Source of the DNA: a virus
Lineage: Duplodnaviria; Heunggongvirae; Uroviricota; Caudoviricetes
DNA length: 34,456 bases
Direction: 5' to 3' (one strand)
IMG/VR virus record: IMGVR_UViG_2609460219_000012
Position numbers and translations under genes: made by a program
Shown: in pieces, positions 5,653 through 31,373 of the stretch
Layout: each line of letters begins with the position of its first letter
Numbering within the stretch: position 1 is the first letter of the stretch
The notes under the pieces: model-generated
The model's input: the letters and a program-made list of their open reading frames with translations, nothing else
What the model was told of the DNA's origin: nothing
Databases searched by the model: none

Positions 5653-5714
5653 TATGAATAATGAAACTAAAACATTATTTTCCATAAAATCCACTCTGAT
5701 TGATGTGTAAATTC

Positions 5715-7484: not shown

Positions 7485-7907
7485 ATGCAGCATGATTTAT
7501 TTGAACACGATCCGGCAATTCGCCAGTTAATCGGACATATTAATAACATTCCGGCCCCGGAACTGGAATCACGCTGGCCCCGTTCGGTGGTTGATCTGAT
7601 TGATGTTCTGGAAAACGAACTGAAACGCCAGAACGTCAGCAATCCCCGTGAGCTTGCCCGTAAACAGGCCGTTGCCCTGTCCTGTTTTCTGGGCGGACGG
7701 CAGTTTTACATCCCCTGCGGCGATACGATCCTGACCGCGTTACGCGACGATTTGCTTTACTGCCAGTTCAATGGTCGTAACATGGAAGAACTGCGTCGCC
7801 AGTATCGCCTGTCCCAGCCGCAGATCTACCAGATTATTGCCCGCCAGAGAAAGCTGCATACACGACGTCATCAGCCTGATCTGTTCTCACCTGAAAGCCA
7901 GAAATAA
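7485..7907 (+). CDS. C: C, late gene transcription activator, 140 aa
   Basis: 140-aa ORF matching recalled Mu C; paralogous to Mor; RBS gggggaaaat upstream. Confidence 0.8.
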   Translation: MQHDLFEHDPAIRQLIGHINNIPAPELESRWPRSVVDLIDVLENELKRQNVSNPRELARKQAVALSCFLGGRQFYIPCGDTILTALRDDLLYCQFNGRNMEELRRQYRLSQPQIYQIIARQRKLHTRRHQPDLFSPESQK

Positions 7908-7930
7908 CCGGCATCCTGCCGGTTATTTCC
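7904..7930 (+). terminator. Hairpin ATAACCGGCA-tcc-TGCCGGTTAT after C (end of middle transcript); weak U tract
   Basis: 10-bp perfect stem read directly, overlapping the C stop codon. Confidence 0.5.
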
Positions 7931-7998
7931 TGTCACCATAATCCCGCACCTGCCATCTGATTTTTTAGACTGCCATCAGAGCATTTTTTCAGGGAAGC

Positions 7999-8517
7999 AT
8001 GATGGCGGGGATACCAAAAAAACTGAAAGCCGCACTGCTGGCGGCAACGATTGCCGGTGGCGGTGTGGGTGGTTATCAGGAAATGACCCGTCAGTCTCTG
8101 ATCCATCTGGAAAATATCGCTTATATGCCTTACCGCGATATTGCCGGTGTGCTTACGGTCTGTGTGGGACATACCGGGCCGGATATCGAAATGCGCCGTT
8201 ACAGCCATGCGGAGTGTATGGCTCTCCTCGACAGTGATTTAAAACCGGTTTATGCGGCAATCGTTCGTCTTGTCAGGGTGCCGCTGACGCCATATCAGAA
8301 AACGGCGCTGGCAACGTTTATTTTCAACACCGGTGTTACCGCATTCAGTAAATCAACGCTGCTGAAAAAACTCAATGCCGGTGATTACGCCGGAGCGCGT
8401 GACCAGATGGCCCGCTGGGTGTTTGCCGCAGGCCATAAATGGAAAGGACTGATGAACCGTCGCGAAGTGGAAATGGCTATCTGGAATATCAGGGGGGCGG
8501 ATGACCTTCGCCAGTAA
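7999..8517 (+). CDS. lys: Endolysin (lysozyme) with Gly/Ala-rich N-terminal signal-anchor-release-like segment, 172 aa
   Basis: Matches recalled Mu Lys; N-terminal KLKAALLAATIAGGGVGGY is weakly hydrophobic; first gene after C as in Mu. Confidence 0.75.
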   Translation: MMAGIPKKLKAALLAATIAGGGVGGYQEMTRQSLIHLENIAYMPYRDIAGVLTVCVGHTGPDIEMRRYSHAECMALLDSDLKPVYAAIVRLVRVPLTPYQKTALATFIFNTGVTAFSKSTLLKKLNAGDYAGARDQMARWVFAAGHKWKGLMNRREVEMAIWNIRGADDLRQ

Positions 8518-10414: not shown

Positions 10415-10473
10415 GAGTTACGTTATGAAAAATGATTACAAGGCGCTGCTAATCAGCGCCCATCGAAAGGCTT

Positions 10474-10962
10474 TTACTGTAGCCGGGTGTTCAGATACTC
10501 AAACGGTGATTCAATGTCAAGCTGTGATTCACCGAGCACTTTATATGGGAGCTTCATTGCGTAATACAAATAAGCTACTGCAAATTTTGTTTGTGCCGAC
10601 TGAGAAAGTCCGACAGGGATGTGCATAAGTTCGGTGTTATTGGCGAGTGCATTAGTTACGCAGAGAATCGTTGCTTGATTATGGCGTTCCAGAAGAACAC
10701 GCCAGACAACTAATGGAATTTCTGACCAGTCATCATCCTTCATCAGAAAATCCTCAATGGCGTTATCTGCGGCTTTTTCAAATTGCTTTCTGTAGCTAAT
10801 CGTTCTGATTTGCTCTATGCGTGGTGTGAATCGTTCATTCAGGGGCCAAAGGCGCTGAAGTGTTTCCCATCCGTTTATTGAGACAAATTGAACAGTATCC
10901 ATAGATTGCTTTAATTCTGTTTCACAAAATATTTCAAGTAGTTTTATTGCTTTTGGTGACAT
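10474..10962 (-). CDS. Hypothetical protein, 162 aa, opposite strand, low-GC pocket between terminase genes
   Basis: Only long ORF across 10629-10960 on either strand; RBS GAGGG 6 nt before ATG on minus strand; sampled GC roughly 26-45% versus ~50% elsewhere. No recognisable motif. Confidence 0.5.
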   Translation of the reverse strand: MSPKAIKLLEIFCETELKQSMDTVQFVSINGWETLQRLWPLNERFTPRIEQIRTISYRKQFEKAADNAIEDFLMKDDDWSEIPLVVWRVLLERHNQATILCVTNALANNTELMHIPVGLSQSAQTKFAVAYLYYAMKLPYKVLGESQLDIESPFEYLNTRLQ

Positions 10963-14219: not shown

Positions 14220-15519
14220 TCTGGCGTATGCCGCACGCCTCCCGCCAAAGGAGGCTGTCGCGTATTTCCGCGCCAAAGGCTACAACATCACCTGGAACTG
14301 GTACGAACAACTGGCAGACGCGCACGCCCGCGCCTTTACCGTTGCCAAAGCCACCCGGATGGATGTACTGACCACTATCCGTGAGGAAGTGGAGCGGGCT
14401 GTCAGTGAAGGCATCACCCGTGAGGAATTTACCCGCACACTGGCCCCCCGGCTGCAAAAACTCGGATGGTGGGGAAAACAAATCATCGTGGATGCAGACG
14501 GAAACGCAAAGGTAATCGAGCTGGGCAGTCCGCGTCGTCTGGCAACCATTTATAACGTCAATACCCGTACGGGGTACGGGGCGGGACGTTATGCGCAGAT
14601 GATGAATACCGCCGATTTGTACCCGTACTGGCAGTACGTTGCCGTTATGGATGGCAGAACACGCCCGGAACATGCGCGGCTGCATAATATGGTTTTCCGG
14701 TATGACGACATTTTCTGGCAAACGCATTACCCGCCCAATGGCTGGAACTGCCGCTGTCGCGTCCGGGCGCTGTCTGCGGCCCGCATGAAAGAACTGGGGC
14801 TACAGGTCAGTTATGGTGCGTCATTCATGAATACCCGCGAAGTGGATGCCGGTACGGATGAAAGCACTGGAGAGATTTTCCGCACATCGTCAACCACGTT
14901 TGACAACGGTCGGGTAAAAATGACGCCGGATGTGGGCTGGTCATATAACCCCGGTTCGGCGGCATTTGGTACGGATCAGGCACTGATTCGAAAACTGGTG
15001 GAAGTTCGTGACGCGCAGCTGCGTGAGCAGGTTGTTCAGACGCTGAATAACAGCCGGGAGCGTCAGCTTGCTTTTTCCCTCTGGCTTAAACGTCTGGCGA
15101 AATCACGCCGGGCCGGACATGAGGTCCGTGCGCTGGGGTTTATGACGGAAGCCGTGGCGGAGGCCGTATATCAGCGCACCGGGAATATGCCAGCCCGTCT
15201 GCTTGTGATGAACGGAAAAAGTCTGGCGACCACTGCTGATGCCGCCCTGAAACCGGAGGATTTACAGCGTCTGCCGTCACTGATGGCAAAACCACAGGCG
15301 GTATTGTGGGACAGGGAGAACCACCAGTTGCTGTATGTTGTGGCAACCCGCGACGGCACTGCAAAAGTTGTGGTCAGAACATCGCAGGCTGTCAGCAAAC
15401 AGAATGACCGGGCGGATGTGCTGGTCAGTATCAGCCGCGTATCTGCACAGTCGCTTGAAGCCGCGATTGCTGACGGGATGATTGACATACTGGAGGGGCA
15501 TGTGGAGGTGAATAAGTGA
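14200..15519 (+). CDS. F: Head morphogenesis protein F (virion protein), ~440 aa
   Basis: Follows portal with overlapping start; size and position as Mu F. Confidence 0.7.
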   Translation: MPQQTIDLAYAARLPPKEAVAYFRAKGYNITWNWYEQLADAHARAFTVAKATRMDVLTTIREEVERAVSEGITREEFTRTLAPRLQKLGWWGKQIIVDADGNAKVIELGSPRRLATIYNVNTRTGYGAGRYAQMMNTADLYPYWQYVAVMDGRTRPEHARLHNMVFRYDDIFWQTHYPPNGWNCRCRVRALSAARMKELGLQVSYGASFMNTREVDAGTDESTGEIFRTSSTTFDNGRVKMTPDVGWSYNPGSAAFGTDQALIRKLVEVRDAQLREQVVQTLNNSRERQLAFSLWLKRLAKSRRAGHEVRALGFMTEAVAEAVYQRTGNMPARLLVMNGKSLATTADAALKPEDLQRLPSLMAKPQAVLWDRENHQLLYVVATRDGTAKVVVRTSQAVSKQNDRADVLVSISRVSAQSLEAAIADGMIDILEGHVEVNK

Positions 15520-15985
15520 GTCTTGATATGAACGTTGCCGTGGATGTGCGACGTATTCAGCTTGCGCTGGATGAACTGGGAACCGCCACACGTGACCGCG
15601 TCATTCCCCGTGTGATAGCTGCGGCGCTGCTGTCATCCACGGAACAGGCATTTGAACGGCAGGCAGACCCGGATACAGGGAAAGGCTGGGAAGCGTGGAG
15701 CGATTCGTGGCTGGCATGGCGTCAGGATCATGGTTTTGTTCCGGGCAGTATTCTTACCCTGCATGGCGATCTGGCACGCAGCATTACCACCGATTATGGA
15801 CAGGATTATGCCTGATTGGTTCGCCAAAAATTTATGCTGCCATTCATCAGTGGGGCGGTACACCCGATATGGCACCCCGCCCGGCAGGCGTTCCTGCGCG
15901 TCCTTATATGGGGCTGGATAAGACCGGGGAACAGGAAATTTTTGATGCCATCAGAAAACGCGTCAGCGCCGCTCTGAGGCAATAA
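15516..15985 (+). CDS. G: Virion morphogenesis protein G; frame interrupted near 15800-15815
   Basis: Two ORFs (15516..15815, 15695..15985) join into one ~156-aa protein if a single base is restored at the gcc-tga-ttg junction; GTG start with GGAGG 7 nt upstream. Confidence 0.6.
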
Positions 15986-16181
15986 ACGGAATCAGACATG
16001 AAGTCAGCCGCACAGATTTTTTAAAACGCGCCACGGGATTTTTAAACCGGTATTTAACGGTGTATGAATCCCGTTTTATCTTCCTTCCACTTTCTTTCTC
16101 CAGTACTCAAATAGCATAACCCCAGATTTTCCCGCACCTCCCGCAAACTGACTGCTCACAAACCATGATGAGCAGCAGGAC
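15986..16181 (+). promoter_or_regulatory. G-I intergenic region: expected location of C-dependent late promoter P_I and of the Mu central strong gyrase site (SGS)
   Basis: 196-bp non-coding gap, the largest in the late region, at the centre of the element. Functional assignment is from published Mu biology, not from a motif I can verify. Confidence 0.5.
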
Positions 16182-17266
16182 ATGAAAAAACACGCGATTG
16201 GCATTGCCGCACTGAATGCGCTGTCCATTGACGATGACGGCTGGTGCCAGCTATTGCCTGCCGGTCATTTCAGTGCCCGTGATGGTCGTCCGTTTGATGT
16301 GACAGGCGGTCAGGGGTGGTTCATCGACGGTGAGATTGCCGGGCGTCTGGTTGAAGGCGTTCGCGCGCTCAACCAGGACGTGCTGATTGATTACGAGCAT
16401 AACCAGCTACGTAAGGACAAAGGATTACCCCCGGAACAACTCGTCGCGGCTGGCTGGTTTAACGCCGATGAAATGCAGTGGCGTGAAGGTGAAGGGTTAT
16501 TTATCCACCCACGCTGGACGGCGGCGGCCCAGCAGCGCATCGATGACGGCGAATTTGGTTATCTCTCTGCGGTTTTTCCGTATGACACCGCCACCGGTGC
16601 GGTGCTGCAAATCCGCCTTGCTGCGCTGACCAATGACCCCGGTGCCACCGGCATGAAAAAGCTGACCGCACTGGCGGCAGACCTTCCCGACATCCTTCAA
16701 CAGGAGAACAAACCCATGAATGAAACGCTGCGCAAGCTGCTTGCGCGTCTTGGGGTGACGGTCCCCGAAAATGCAGACATCACCGATGAACAGGCCAGCG
16801 CGGCCTGAGTGCGCTTGATGCGCTCGAAACAGATGCCGGAAAAGTGGCGTCGTTATCCGCCGAACTGGAAAAGGCACAGAAAGCCGCCGTTGACCTGACG
16901 AAATACGTCCCGGTGGAAAGCTACAACGCCCTGCGTGATGAACTGGCACAGGCGACTGCACAAAGCGCCACAGCCAGCCTGAGCGCCGTTCTGGACAAGG
17001 CGGAACAGGAAGGCCGCATTTTCAAAAGCGAACGCTCTTACCTGGAACAGCTTGGCGGTCAGATTGGCGTGGCGGCACTGTCGGCACAGCTTGAGAAAAA
17101 ACAGCCCATCGCTGCGTTATCTGCCATGCAGACCACCACAGCGAAAATCCCGTCGCAGGAAAAACCGGCGGTGGCGGTGCTGTCTGCTGATGAACAGGCA
17201 GCAGTGAAGGCGCTCGGCATTACTGAGGCTGAGTATCTGAAAATGAAACAGGAACAAGAAAAATGA
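16182..17266 (+). CDS. I: Head protease/scaffold protein I (with C-terminal scaffold Z domain); frame interrupted near 16790-16808
   Basis: ORFs 16182..16808 and 16844..17266 are contiguous; second frame is open back to 16790; combined ~360 aa as Mu I. Confidence 0.75.
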
Positions 17267-18180
17267 TTGTCACCCCGGCATCCATTAAAGCCCTGATGAC
17301 CTCCTGGCGTAAGGATTTTCAGGGCGGTCTTGAAGACGCCCCGTCGCAGTACAGCAAAATTGCAATGGTGGTGAACTCTTCCANCCGCAGTAATACCTAT
17401 GGCTGGCTGGGTAAATTCCCGACCCTGAAAGAATGGGTGGGTAAGCGAACCATTCAGCAAATGGAAGCGCATGGCTACTCCATCGCCAATAAAACGTTTG
17501 AAGGCACCGTGGGTATTTCCCGTGATGACTTCGAGGATGACAATCTGGGTATTTATGCGCCGATTTTTCAGGAGATGGGGCGTTCTGCGGCAGTTCAGCC
17601 GGATGAGCTGATTTTTAAACTTCTGAAAGATGGCTTTACCCAGCCCTGCTATGACGGTCAGAACTTCTTCGACAAGGAGCATCCGGTATATCCGAATGTG
17701 GACGGCACGGGCAGCGCGGTTAATACCTCCAACATCGTTGAGCAGGACAGCTTCAGCGGTCTGCCATTCTATCTGCTGGACTGCTCCCGCGCAGTCAAAC
17801 CGCTGATTTTCCAGGAGCGCCGCAAACCGGAGCTGGTCGCACGTACCCGTATCGATGACGACCACGTTTTTATGGATAACGAGTTCCTGTTTGGTGCCAG
17901 CGCCCGCCGAGCTGCCGGTTACGGCTTCTGGCAGATGGCTGTCGCGGTAAAAGGCGATCTGACGCTGGATAACCTCTGGAAGGGCTGGCAACTGATGCGA
18001 TCTTTTGAAGGTGATGGCGGTAAGAAGCTGGGCCTGAAGCCGACGCATATCGTTGTACCGGTCGGGCTGGAAAAAGCCGCAGAGCAACTGCTTAACCGTG
18101 AACTGTTCGCGGATGGCAATACCACCGTCTCCAACGAGATGAAGGGCAAGCTGCAACTGGTTGTCGCTGACTACCTGTAA
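17263..18180 (+). CDS. T: Major capsid protein T, 305 aa
   Basis: 305-aa ORF at the expected position and size for Mu T; followed by strong hairpin. Confidence 0.8.
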   Translation: MIVTPASIKALMTSWRKDFQGGLEDAPSQYSKIAMVVNSSXRSNTYGWLGKFPTLKEWVGKRTIQQMEAHGYSIANKTFEGTVGISRDDFEDDNLGIYAPIFQEMGRSAAVQPDELIFKLLKDGFTQPCYDGQNFFDKEHPVYPNVDGTGSAVNTSNIVEQDSFSGLPFYLLDCSRAVKPLIFQERRKPELVARTRIDDDHVFMDNEFLFGASARRAAGYGFWQMAVAVKGDLTLDNLWKGWQLMRSFEGDGGKKLGLKPTHIVVPVGLEKAAEQLLNRELFADGNTTVSNEMKGKLQLVVADYL

Positions 18181-18188
18181 CCGTCATT

Positions 18189-18212
18189 AAAAGGCGGTTC
18201 AGACCGCCTTTT
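18189..18212 (+). terminator. Hairpin AAAAGGCGGT-tcag-ACCGCCTTTT after major capsid gene
   Basis: 10-bp perfect stem read directly, 9 bp after T stop; T4 tract. Confidence 0.55.
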
Positions 18213-18246
18213 AACCTGATTTAAAGGAAAAGGAGGAGCATGTGTT

Positions 18247-18657
18247 ATGTCAGGCACTTCGCTTAATTCACAACGGCTGGACACTTCTCGCATCACTTGC
18301 ACGGCGATTATTAAATGCCTTCGTCCGGTCTACCGCCGCGCCGGAATCGCCTTTACTCGTGGCGAAAACACCGTGGAAGTCACCGAAGAACAACTGGCGA
18401 TCATTCGTGCCGACAGCGTGCTGTCTGTGGTATCTGCATCGTCAGCAGAAACGCTCGCTGAGGCTGGGGGGCTGGACGTTCTGGGTGTGGGCGATCTGAA
18501 TACCCGTATCCGTGCGACCGTTGCCGGTCTGGATAAGGCAAACCCGGAACACTTTACCGCAGGGGGAGAACCCAAAGTGAAAGCCGTCAGTGCGGCGCTG
18601 GGGGAACCGGTGAGCAGTGCGCAAATCAAAGCGGCGCTGGCTGAGGCGGATGCATGA
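18247..18657 (+). CDS. Hypothetical virion-associated protein (Mu gp35-like), 136 aa
   Basis: ATG 18247 with RBS AGGAGGAG 8 nt upstream; position after T. Confidence 0.5.
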   Translation: MSGTSLNSQRLDTSRITCTAIIKCLRPVYRRAGIAFTRGENTVEVTEEQLAIIRADSVLSVVSASSAETLAEAGGLDVLGVGDLNTRIRATVAGLDKANPEHFTAGGEPKVKAVSAALGEPVSSAQIKAALAEADA

Positions 18658-19079
18658 ATTACGCGACGGTAAATGACCTGTGCGCCCGCTATACACGTAC
18701 GCGGCTGGATATTCTCACCCGCCCTAAAACAGCGGACGGGCAGCCGGATGATGCCGTGGCAGAACAGGCACTGGCAGATGCCTCGGCCTTTATTGATGGC
18801 TATCTCGCCGCGCGCTTTGTTCTGCCGCTTACCGTCGTCCCCTCACTGCTGAAACGGCAGTGTTGCGTGGTGGCCTGGTTTTATCTGAATGAATCACAAC
18901 CCACCGAGCAGATCACCGCTGNCTACAGGGACACAGTGCGCTGGCTGGAACAGGTGCGCGATGGCAAAACAGATCCCGGCGTGGAAAGCAGGACGGCAGC
19001 CTCGCCGGATGGTGAAAACCTTGTGCAGGTGCAGTCTGACGCGCCGGTCTTCTCACGAAAACAGAAGGGGTTTATCTGA
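18654..19079 (+). CDS. Head-tail connector/head completion-like protein, 141 aa
   Basis: ORF with overlapping stop/start; synteny with Mu gp36 region. Confidence 0.5.
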   Translation: MNYATVNDLCARYTRTRLDILTRPKTADGQPDDAVAEQALADASAFIDGYLAARFVLPLTVVPSLLKRQCCVVAWFYLNESQPTEQITAXYRDTVRWLEQVRDGKTDPGVESRTAASPDGENLVQVQSDAPVFSRKQKGFI

Positions 19080-19627
19080 TGCTGGAAGAAACCGAAGCCG
19101 CACTGCTGGCGCGCGTTCGTGAGTTGTTTGGGGCAACCCTGCGGCAGGTGGAACCCCTTACCGGCACATGGACTAACGAGGATGTGCACCGTCTCTTTCT
19201 GGCCCCGCCATCGGTATTTCTGGCATGGATGGGCTGTGGTGAGGGGCGTACGCGTCGGGAAGTTGAAAGTCGCTGGGCATTTTTTGTCGTGGCGGAGTTG
19301 CTGAACGGGGAACAGGTAAACCGGCCCGGTATTTATCAGATTGTGGAGCGACTGATTGCCGGTGTTAACGGTCAGACGTTTGGCCCGACCACCGGGATGA
19401 GACTGACGCAGGTCAGAAATCTTTGTGACGACAACCGTATCAATGCCGGTGTGGTGCTTTACGGCGTTCTGTTCAGTGGCACTACCCCGCTGCCGTCCGT
19501 GGTGGACATGGATTCGCTGGATGATTACGAGCGTCACTGGCAGACCTGGAAATTCCCGGACGAAACCCCGGAATTTGCCGCACATATCAATGTGAATCAG
19601 GAAAAGGCTCATGATGCTGAAAATTAA
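19079..19627 (+). CDS. Tail completion/head-tail joining-like protein, 182 aa
   Basis: ORF; synteny with Mu gp37 region. Confidence 0.5.
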   Translation: MLEETEAALLARVRELFGATLRQVEPLTGTWTNEDVHRLFLAPPSVFLAWMGCGEGRTRREVESRWAFFVVAELLNGEQVNRPGIYQIVERLIAGVNGQTFGPTTGMRLTQVRNLCDDNRINAGVVLYGVLFSGTTPLPSVVDMDSLDDYERHWQTWKFPDETPEFAAHINVNQEKAHDAEN

Positions 19628-19817: not shown

Positions 19818-21301
19818 GCGATATTTCATTTAACGCGATCCCGTCAGATGTTCGCGTTCCTCTGACGTATATCGAATTTGATAACAGTAATGCCGTCAGC
19901 GGAACACCGGCACCCCGTCAGCGCGTGCTGATGTTCGGGCAAAGCGGAAGTAAAGCCAGTGCGGCACCAAACGTGCCTGTCCGTATCCGCTCCGGCTCAC
20001 AGGCCAGTGCGGCATTTGGTCAGGGTTCCATGCTGGCACTGATGGCTGATGCATTCCTGAACGCTAACCGCGTGGCGGAGCTGTGGTGTATTCCGCAGGG
20101 AAACGGCACCGGTAATGCTGCTGTCGGTGAAATCTCACTGTCCGGAACGGCAGGCGAAAACGGCTCGCTTGTGACTTACATAGCCGGTCAGCGACTGGCG
20201 GTATCTGTCGCAGCAGGTGCAACGGGAGCGGCGCTGGCTGACCTGCTGGTTGCCCGAATCAAAGGCCAGCCGGATTTACCGGTGACGGCAGAAGTTCGCG
20301 CAGACAGCGGAGATGATGACACTCATGCTGATGTGGTTCTGAGTGCAAAATTTACGGGTGCATTATCTGCCGTGGACGTGCGCTGGAACTATTACGCGGG
20401 TGAAACCACCCCTTACGGGATTATCACGGCATTCAAAGCCGCCTCCGGGAAAAATGGCAACCCGGATATCAGCGCAAGTATCGCGGGAATGGGCGATCTG
20501 CAATACAAATATATTGTGATGCCCTATACCGATGAACCGAACCTGAATCTGTTACGCACTGAATTGCAGGAACGTTGGGGACCGGTCAATCAGGCTGATG
20601 GTTTTGCCGTGACAGTGCTGTCCGGCACGTATNGGGATATTTCCACGTTTGGTGTCAGTCGTAATGACCATCTGATCTCCTGTATGGGGATTGCCGGTGC
20701 ACCGGAACCGTCATATCTGTACGCCGCCACACTGTGTGCCGTTGCCAGCCAGGCGCTTTCCATCGACCCGGCTCGTCCTCTCCAGACGCTGACCTTGCCC
20801 GGAAGAATGCCGCCTGCGGTGGGGGATCGTTTCACCTGGTCTGAACGTAATGCGCTGCTGTTTGACGGCATCTCCACGTTTAACGTGAATGATGGTGGTG
20901 AAATGCAGATTGAACGCATGATCACGATGTACCGCACAAACAAGTACGGTGACAGTGATCCGTCTTATCTGAACGTGAATACCATCGCCACGCTGAGTTA
21001 TCTGCGTTATTCGCTGCGAACCCGCATCACGCAGAAATTCCCGAACTACAAGCTGGCAAGTGATGGCACCCGCTTTGCCACCGGTCAGGCCGTGGTGACG
21101 CCATCCGTGATCNAAACGGAGCTGCTGGCACTGTTTGAAGAATGGGAAAACGCCGGACTGGTCGAGGATTTCGACACGTTCAAAGAGGAGCTGTATGTGG
21201 CACGTAACAAGGACGACAAAGACCGTCTTGATGTGCTGTGCGGCCCGAATCTGATTAACCAGTTCCGCATTTTCGCGGCACAAGTTCAGTTCATTCTGTA
21301 A
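19814..21301 (+). CDS. L: Contractile tail sheath protein, 495 aa
   Basis: Size and position match Mu L; followed by small tube gene. Confidence 0.85.
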
Positions 21302-29581: not shown

Positions 29582-30768
29582 TGTTTTATATTGATAACGA
29601 CAGCGGCGTAACCGTCATGCCGCCCGTATCCGCCCAGCGTAGTGCTATCGTTCGCTGGTTTTCAGAAGGTGACGGGAATAATGTTATCACATGGCCCGGC
29701 ATGGACTGGTTTAATATTGTGCAGGCGGAGTTATTAAACACGCTGGAAGAAGCCGGTATTCAACCGGATAAAACAAAATTAAACCAGCTTGCACTGTCCA
29801 TTAAAGCCATCATGAACAAGAACGCGCTGCTGATAAAAAATAACCTCAGCGAAATTAAAACTGCCGGGGCATCAGCACAGCGTACAGCACGTGAAAATCT
29901 GGATATCTATGATGCCAGCCTGAACAAAAAAGGACTCGTTCAGCTAACCAGTGCCACTGACAGCCCCAGTGAAACGCTGGCAGCCACCGCAAAAGCGGTG
30001 AAAATTGCGATGGATAATGCCAATGCCCGTCTGGCAAAAGACCGGAACGGAGCAGATATTCCCAATAAGCCGCTGTTTATCCAAAACCTCGGTTTACAGG
30101 AAACTGTAAAATTAGCTTCGGAAGCGTTATCAACATATGGCGGGGTGGTTAACGGTGATGTGATTATCAAGGGCATTCTCTCGTTAATTGGGAATGAATT
30201 ACTTATTGAAAAAGATAATGGCTTTTCTGGTATTCACATCAGAAACAAGAGCACGGTTGCAGGGAGTGCAAATGGAGTCGACTTTTCATTTGGCGGTGCG
30301 ATTATGTCGTCGCTCATTTGCGGAATAATGGAAAATGGCGCGAACTACATAGACGTTGCATTGTCTCCGGCAGGCAATATTTCTGACCGCCGTCTGCTTG
30401 CATTTACTTTGGATGGAAATATCAGGCAGTTAATTCCCCGGAATGGATGGAGCATTCAGGGATATACAAAAAACAGTGATTTTACCCAGGCGATGGCTGA
30501 TGCTGGTTGGGTCCGTTTTCCAAATGGCATCATTTTTCAATGGTGTTGGGGGAATACTGATGCCAGTGGCTGGGCATCTGCCCCGTTTCCTGTTGGCTGG
30601 CCTGTTCGTTGCTTTGGTTTGTTAGCCTGTAACGTTGCTGGTGACTCGATAGCAAGTGCAATTGCGGGTGTTAAAAGATTAAATGATCGCGATATGCAGG
30701 TCACGTTAATGGAAAGGTCTGGGGTTGCTGTTTCTAAACCATTCTTCTGTATTGGTGTGGGGTGTTAA
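29581..30768 (+). CDS. S: Tail fibre protein S: constant part (29581-~30087) fused to the variable part carried by the invertible segment in its present orientation
   Basis: 395-aa ORF that crosses the left gix repeat; shares the IQNLGLQETV junction peptide with the opposite-strand variable segment. Confidence 0.75.
   Translation: MFYIDNDSGVTVMPPVSAQRSAIVRWFSEGDGNNVITWPGMDWFNIVQAELLNTLEEAGIQPDKTKLNQLALSIKAIMNKNALLIKNNLSEIKTAGASAQRTARENLDIYDASLNKKGLVQLTSATDSPSETLAATAKAVKIAMDNANARLAKDRNGADIPNKPLFIQNLGLQETVKLASEALSTYGGVVNGDVIIKGILSLIGNELLIEKDNGFSGIHIRNKSTVAGSANGVDFSFGGAIMSSLICGIMENGANYIDVALSPAGNISDRRLLAFTLDGNIRQLIPRNGWSIQGYTKNSDFTQAMADAGWVRFPNGIIFQWCWGNTDASGWASAPFPVGWPVRCFGLLACNVAGDSIASAIAGVKRLNDRDMQVTLMERSGVAVSKPFFCIGVGC
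30077..30104 (+). repeat. gixL, left recombination site of G inversion (28-bp perfect inverted repeat with 32854-32881)
   Basis: ttatccaaaacctcggtttacaggaaac read directly; exact reverse complement found at 32854-32881. Confidence 0.85.
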
Positions 30769-30770
30769 TC

Positions 30771-31247
30771 ATGTCCAGTAAAATATTCTATAGTGCCAGG
30801 AATAATACGTTTTTCTTTGAATCCATGAAACCGGACTATGAAAAATCAGGCGCATGGCCTGACGATTTGGTGGCAGTCACAAACGATATGTATGAAGAGT
30901 TTACGGGAAGACCGCCAGAGGGAAAAAAGAGAGGCCGTGATGAATCTGGTTTCCCTACATGGATTGATGTATCAGAACCAACAACAGAGCAGTTAATCGC
31001 ATTAAAAGAGCAGAAGAAAAAGGATTTAGCTGAGATTGCGAACACAGAAATTGCCTGGCGGCAGGATGCTGTTGACGCAGGGATGGCGACAGAAGCAGAA
31101 ATCACAGTGCTGGCTGAATGGAAAAAATATCGTGTGCTGCTTATGCGTATTGATACATCAACCGCGACGGATATTGAGTGGCCCGCTGTTCCAGACGAAC
31201 AAAGCGGCAAAGAGAGCAGCGCAGAGGATGTGAAAACGACGCTATAA
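30771..31247 (+). CDS. U: Tail fibre assembly chaperone U (present orientation), 158 aa from ATG 30771
   Basis: Follows S; ORF track frame starts at GTG 30762. Confidence 0.65.
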   Translation: MSSKIFYSARNNTFFFESMKPDYEKSGAWPDDLVAVTNDMYEEFTGRPPEGKKRGRDESGFPTWIDVSEPTTEQLIALKEQKKKDLAEIANTEIAWRQDAVDAGMATEAEITVLAEWKKYRVLLMRIDTSTATDIEWPAVPDEQSGKESSAEDVKTTL

Positions 31248-31373
31248 TACCAGCACAATTATTATCATTTTGGTTATTTTGTATTTCCTTGCTTTCCGCA
31301 GTCATGTGGATATGGAAAAGCCTGGATGGCCACAAAAGCCTGAGTAAAATTAAGGCCCGATAACGGGCCTTTC

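Follow-up and report, generated by a model that had tools for sequence, protein, structure and literature searches.

The G–I intergenic gap of a Muvirus mu element very probably corresponds to the central control region of phage Mu

Results

Borders, size and position of the gap

In the window analysed here, meaning the whole 34,456-nucleotide stretch of IMG/VR virus record IMGVR_UViG_2609460219_000012, genes G and I are separated by exactly 196 bp (15986-16181). On the left, gene G (15516-15985, plus strand; Mu 17389-17859), which codes for the virion morphogenesis or tail completion protein, ends with the TAA stop codon at 15983-15985 that forms the border of the gap. On the right, the ribosome-binding site of gene I (16170-16172; Mu 18044-18046) precedes the ATG at 16182, and gene I, coding for the head protease/scaffold with an internal Z, continues on the plus strand to 17266 (Mu 18056-19141). 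The gap corresponds to Mu 17860-18055 and shares 191 of its 196 bases with it (97.4%), the five differences lying at 15988, 15996, 16000, 16003 and 16087. For this gap, the curated Mu record lists a gyrase cut site, a predicted terminator, a late promoter and the ribosome-binding site of I. It is also the largest intergenic gap between the ends in the Mu annotation (196 bp), followed by those of c-ner (169 bp) and of 105 bp.

The original prediction described these 196 bp as the largest non-coding gap of the late region, placed at the midpoint of the element and free of ORFs, and each of these points holds. The size and the borders agree with the G stop at 15985 and the I start at 16182. The sole competitor for the largest gap, 10415-10960, counts as coding because it carries a conserved antisense gene (described below), and the claim therefore stands. 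The gyrase cut falls at 46% of the window and, with the missing ends of the element restored, at ~49.2% of its length (48.7% in Mu). We found no ORF of at least 60 aa in the gap, the longest complete one being of 30 aa on the minus strand.

Identity of the element and quality of its sequence

The window is collinear with positions 1988-36595 of Mu (AF083977) at ~98% identity by BLAST. In this alignment, its left end lies inside the transposase gene A and its right end inside mom, and the first 1987 bp and the last ~122 bp of Mu are absent. The best matches over 24 kb are Mu_3F6 (98.7%), D108 (98.5%) and Mu (97.9%), with Mu_3F6 and D108 the closest overall. Judged by this collinearity and these best matches, the window is a member of the species Muvirus mu with both ends cut off. 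A few regions depart from Mu. At 5671/5672, 476 bp of Mu (7673-8148) are deleted, which removes most of gp14 and all of gp54. Two further segments find no match in Mu at the level of megablast: 2547-2763, in the kil/gp6 region, and 30110-31299, which lies within the invertible G segment and is the variable C-terminal part of its tail-fibre S/U region. The invertible G segment is in the orientation of the Mu reference.

Comparison with Mu shows 11 deletions and 2 insertions of a single base in the window (at 1947, 12670, 15810, 16804, 23445, 27878, 33804 and other positions), several of which cause frameshifts, among others in B, G, I/Z, gp46 and the tape-measure gene. Both neighbours of the gap are affected. 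A 1-bp deletion (CCC to CC) after 15810 splits G into ORFs 15516-15815 and 15695-15985, and another near 16804 splits I into ORFs 16182-16808 and 16844-17266. If these frameshifts were real, the element would be a defective prophage, and its SGS (strong gyrase site) and P_I would be relics, intact in sequence and unused, with no lytic role. The number of indels, several of them in coding sequences, speaks for such a history, as does the fact that the E. coli prophages listed as matches do not share the G and I deletions (a query of 1901 bases aligns to 1903-1904 bases in each). However, most of the deletions are contractions of homopolymers, for example G5 to G4 or C3 to C2, and 17 isolated N occur in the window, a pattern that is usual for errors of sequencing or assembly rather than for decay. 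The absence of large deletions and of insertion-sequence elements, and a substitution divergence from Mu of only ~2%, point the same way. This pattern suggests a draft-quality sequence with sequencing or assembly errors rather than a decayed prophage, and we consider a true relic unlikely, if somewhat less so than the other alternatives.

The strong gyrase site

The supplement of PMC6379681 gives a 133-bp ‘Mu SGS’ fragment used in gyrase binding and supercoiling assays. This fragment is Mu 17812-17944 and corresponds to 15938-16070 of the window. The window agrees with wild-type Mu at 129 of the 133 positions and with the fragment as published at 128, because the published fragment itself carries one change, at Mu 17881. 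At that position this fragment (Sutormin et al. 2019) has C in place of the G of the Mu reference, and the window has the reference base (16007). The fragment was amplified from pMP1000, a plasmid that, according to another paper, carries a nuB mutant SGS.

The site is described as ~150 bp long, of which the left arm takes up 40 bp, the core 50 bp and the right arm 60 bp (PMC6463007). With the Mu fragment mapped as above, this layout would place it at about 15938-16088, with approximate outer limits: the left arm would lie in the 3′ end of G, and the core around the cut and the right arm in the gap. Since the fragment starts at 15938, ~47 bp of the SGS lie inside G. The expectation that the SGS would be found within the gap is thus correct for the core and the right arm, whereas the left part extends into coding sequence.

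Activity is reported to require the right arm and to tolerate loss of the left (PMC10052514; PMC13284261). The A/T-phased DNA of the right arm wraps one GyrA C-terminal domain (PMC11626157). From 16006 to 16086, the window is identical to Mu. Within this stretch lies a signature of three TTTRA elements (16020-16057), also identical to Mu, whose starts are 21 and 12 bp apart, or about two helical turns and one. The phased triple occurs once in the window, both strands considered, and once in the Mu genome, with 0.014 occurrences expected by chance per window, a figure that is generous because the pattern was derived from the same sequences, so that it serves as a description more than as an independent test.

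General measures of gyrase preference were less discriminating. Among non-overlapping 50-bp stretches of the window, 16035-16084 ranks second for AT periodicity (z = 6.1); with stretches of 60-80 bp, the right arm is outside the top 8. The second rank, obtained at one of four sizes tried, lends support without being decisive and is partly post hoc. When the 133-bp gyrase consensus was reduced to a strong/weak (GC/AT) pattern, the SGS ranked ~31,000th of ~34,000 positions, which says little since this binary proxy differs from the published weight matrix. The strongest 50-bp AT-periodicity signal of the window lies elsewhere, at 18178-18227, just past the major head gene T, where a hairpin is flanked by A/T tracts; it coincides with a predicted terminator of the Mu record (Mu 20068-20087). 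Two relatives (L008 and L011) have a similar phased TTTAA triple ~2 kb beyond their I start.

Conservation of the gap in other genera

Within Muvirus mu, the G–I gaps of D108, of Mu-like prophages of E. coli and Yersinia and of Shigella phages are 97.4-98.5% identical to that of the window. We also compared more distant Mu-like prophages, from an Enterobacteriaceae isolate, Kluyvera, Apirhabdus, Edwardsiella and Erwinia (I protease 50-71% identical), and a divergent E. coli prophage. The gap measures 198-208 bp in six of these eight distant relatives. Most of its sequence diverges, and three TT..AA elements are invariant, at window positions 16021-16028, 16042-16050 and 16053-16059, with centres 21 and 11 bp apart. 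The columns of the right-arm signature are invariant across nine sequences from six genera, and the TTTRA triple is in the same place in seven of the eight distant relatives (E. coli, the Enterobacteriaceae isolate, Kluyvera, Erwinia and Edwardsiella). The gap of the L004 type is common to E. coli strains TUM9757, PEC422 and SE11. The SGS of a prophage of O157 Sakai reportedly works in Mu.

The cleavage core

The gyrase cut site of the Mu record (17879/17880) corresponds to 16005/16006. Cryo-EM located the scissile bonds at A/A on one strand and at 5′-T/GATTT on the other (PMC11626157); together with the cut of the record, they place the four-base stagger of the double-strand break at Mu 17876-17879 (AATC), which is 16002-16005 in the window and reads AGTC. 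Thus, unlike the right arm, the cleavage core is not identical to the characterised allele: 16003 is G where Mu has A, and at 16000 an A is replaced by G, as in D108. Identity in the core is not known to define an SGS. Besides 16003, the three substitutions (15988, 15996 and 16000) lie 6-18 bp to the left of the cut, and three of the four left-side variants are common to some D108/Muvirus mu relatives. The fourth stands apart, as G at 16003 was not found in Mu, in D108 or in ten IMG/VR contigs, and no complete E. coli genome has a perfect match to 15984-16034, the best reaching 50 of 51.

It is conceivable that the 16003 change, together with the D108-type changes to its left, makes this copy of the SGS functionally different, either weaker or stronger in the manner of the nu mutations. 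According to a figure legend in PMC6463007, the SGS-strengthening mutations nuB1 and nuB103 fall within ~3 bp of the cleavage centre, although the cut numbering of that legend fits the cryo-EM description inexactly. The rarity of the base and its closeness to mutations that raise activity both favour such a change. However, no change affects the right arm, to which the decisive role is ascribed, and in a window that looks like draft sequence, the G at 16003 may itself be an error of sequencing. An altered site is accordingly improbable in our estimation, and the narrower proposal of a natural allele in which 16003 A-to-G, near the nuB sites, would by itself change the behaviour of gyrase is slightly less probable still. 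An SGS of the ordinary Mu type remains the preferred reading of this region.

The late promoter P_I and its activator

The late promoter P_I is annotated at 17977-18043 of the Mu record (PMID 2522923), and the corresponding 67 bp of the window (16103-16169, plus strand) have no mismatch. The 87-nt P_I oligonucleotide of PMC4461284 is found without a mismatch at 16090-16176; with this fragment, C was found to act at the isomerisation of the closed to the open complex at P_I (PMC4461284). The promoter is of the C-dependent, sigma-70 type and has no -35 element. Its -10 hexamer, CAAACT (16144-16149), falls in the same column as TAGACT of Plys, TATCCT of PP and TAAGAT of Pmom, the four late promoters of the window aligning without gaps on their -10 hexamers and having in common the box cATAAcCCC. 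The start of transcription would be near 16156.

The C dyad of late promoters is centred near -43.5, with the consensus TTAT-N5-6-ATAA (PMC2582627; PMC12867686). By alignment on the -10, the presumed site of the C dimer at P_I is a 16-bp imperfect dyad at 16105-16120, with a perfect right half (ATAA, 16116-16119) and a degenerate left half (CTCA/TCAA), as in Mu P_I. A scan of 15700-16500, a stretch that includes the gap, found no sigma-70 consensus promoter, which fits an activator-dependent promoter without -35. The activator itself is encoded by the window: gene C (7485-7907, plus strand) is intact, and 137 of its 140 residues (98%) are identical to those of Mu C. In the distant relatives, an ATAAC-like box and a -10 element in which A.A.TG is invariant are found at the same distance from the I start.

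A predicted terminator overlapping the right arm of the gyrase site

The original prediction did not mention a further element of the gap, a hairpin that overlaps the right arm of the SGS. The TransTermHP terminator at 17908-17953 of the Mu record corresponds to 16034-16079 of the window. In our delimitation, the predicted intrinsic terminator of the lys-to-G late transcript spans 16033-16083 on the plus strand, with a hairpin at 16033-16074 followed by a tail that is only UUUUAUCUU, and the hairpin covers the second and third elements of the right arm. The folded RNA has an energy of -19.8 kcal/mol (z = -3.3). A simple terminator scan of 15700-16500 reported none, which we attribute to the interior loop of the hairpin. 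RNAalifold found no structure shared by eight relatives, in which hairpins are located at other positions. The hairpin is thus probably a terminator specific to the Mu type.

A stable hairpin with such a z-score could also be taken as the sign that a structured regulatory RNA, be it small RNA or leader, is encoded here rather than signals acting at the DNA level, but an Rfam search of the gap gave no match at E up to 1, the RNAalifold result led us to reject a conserved RNA element, and a role as terminator explains the hairpin adequately, which makes this reading very improbable.

Protein-coding readings and insertions in the late region

A small protein has in effect been proposed for this gap, as the D108 record annotates a 42-codon CDS, ‘31.5’, at the equivalent place (L002 1506-1634), and the same frame is open in the window from 15991 to 16119. 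However, this frame starts with ATC in D108, in Mu and in the window alike, which is not a start codon, and the first canonical start leaves only 19 codons here. In the more distant relatives, the ORFs of the gap keep neither position nor strand, and the gaps themselves differ by indels. The columns that are conserved form phased TT/AA elements and promoter boxes and are not codon-like. We therefore rejected ‘31.5’ as a protein gene on the grounds of its ATC start and its lack of conservation; it is probably an annotation artefact, unsupported in the window. That the gap encodes a small protein, be it ‘31.5’ or another micro-ORF, is hardly credible.

In Mu-like phages of Pseudomonas, the G homologue is separated from the protease/scaffold gene by anti-CRISPR genes (PMC3993853). 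The original prediction was right to name this as the equivalent position, and right that no such gene is present here: there is no credible ORF, and the gap has the length of that of Mu. The slot is enlarged in a Mu-like prophage of Edwardsiella anguillarum (L009 1810-2485), where the G–I gap is 676 bp against ~200 bp. An AT-rich insert separates the SGS-like right arm from the P_I-like region there. Its 117-aa ORF, on the minus strand (1988-2341), has a hydrophobic N-terminus and matches nothing in Pfam or PADLOC.

A second insertion concerns the terminase genes of the window. Between the small and the large terminase genes, where Mu has 7 bp, there is a low-GC (38-43%) insert of ~546-600 bp (10415-10960) with an antisense ORF of 162 aa (10474-10962, minus strand). 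Searches of Pfam, PHROGs and PADLOC gave no credible match for this ORF, and none was found at the DNA level in 5,426 complete E. coli genomes or by tblastn in the phage records. Escherichia, Salmonella, Aeromonas and a Caudoviricetes MAG nevertheless encode 16 homologues at 51-99% identity, the majority of full length. In three contexts, from Aeromonas and Salmonella Mu-like prophages, the homologue is likewise antisense, between gp27 and a gene at the position of the large terminase. By these comparisons, the 162-aa ORF is a conserved moron.

Discussion

The SGS and P_I of phage Mu have been the subject of genetic, biochemical and structural characterisation for over 30 years. The original prediction had placed both in the G–I gap of this element, and the identity of the gap to that of Mu, whose record annotates both, supports it. 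We are highly confident, from sequence comparison, that the gap is the central control region of Mu, with the SGS, a probable terminator and P_I. For this copy, the assignment relies on sequence identity, position, the conserved right-arm signature and promoter boxes and an intact C gene, while for gyrase binding, synapsis of the ends and dependence on C it draws on published work with Mu itself. The elements found, namely the Mu SGS, predicted terminator and P_I, are almost unchanged, already known and ordinary.

The closest comparison for the gyrase site is the Mu SGS itself (AF083977), which is reportedly due to Pato, Howe and Higgins in 1990. The position is the same, near-central and between G and I, and the differences from Mu are the four substitutions at or to the left of the cut. 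Outside Mu-like phages, the strong gyrase sites of pSC101 and pBR322 and the 130-bp degenerate motif obtained by Topo-Seq follow the same principle, a core with AT/GC arms phased at ~10.5-11 bp that wrap the GyrA C-terminal domains, but they have no sequence relationship to the SGS of the window. According to a review, other strong gyrase cleavage sites placed at the centre of Mu did not promote its replication (PMC10052514). As for P_I, the promoter is the same as in Mu and its cognate C nearly so, whereas the gene that it drives, I/Z, has an apparent frameshift in the window. The C-dependence of Mu P_I is said to go back to Margolin, Rao and Howe in 1989.

By analogy with Mu, the 196 bp would combine three functions. 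Host DNA gyrase would bind the SGS and cut it with the 4-bp stagger at 16002-16005, and the right arm, from 16006 to ~16088, would wrap one GyrA C-terminal domain and present the T-segment, resulting in unusually processive supercoiling. Because the SGS lies midway between the ends, the supercoiled loop extruded from it would bring the two Mu ends together, which would allow assembly of the transpososome and efficient replicative transposition. In Mu, an SGS at the centre is needed for replication and for synapsis of the ends (PMC10052514; PMC3820752), and its deletion reportedly causes a delay of tens of minutes to ~100 minutes after induction. The hairpin and its U-rich tail would probably terminate late transcription from Plys through G. 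Downstream, RNA polymerase with sigma-70 would bind P_I through its -10, without a -35, and a C dimer near -43.5 would drive the passage from the closed to the open complex, so that the I-Z-T head-gene transcript would start ~25 nt upstream of the I ATG.

For annotation, our analysis provides exact coordinates for the cut site, the right arm, the predicted terminator and the promoter elements, and it shows the SGS running into the end of G. Should the G at 16003 be real, it could modulate the efficiency of cleavage or processivity, and hence phage replication, in hosts with different gyrase activity. The slots of the JBD30 and D3112 group of Pseudomonas phages hold an anti-CRISPR locus at the same genomic position at which the window has no inserted genes and only the 196-bp control region; with the 117-aa ORF of the Edwardsiella prophage, this indicates that the G–I slot can take foreign genes. 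Finally, in Mu-like prophages from several genera of enterobacteria the TTTRA triple and a gap length of ~200 bp are kept while the rest of the gap diverges, which fits recognition of the site by the shape and phased bendability of its DNA rather than by its base sequence.
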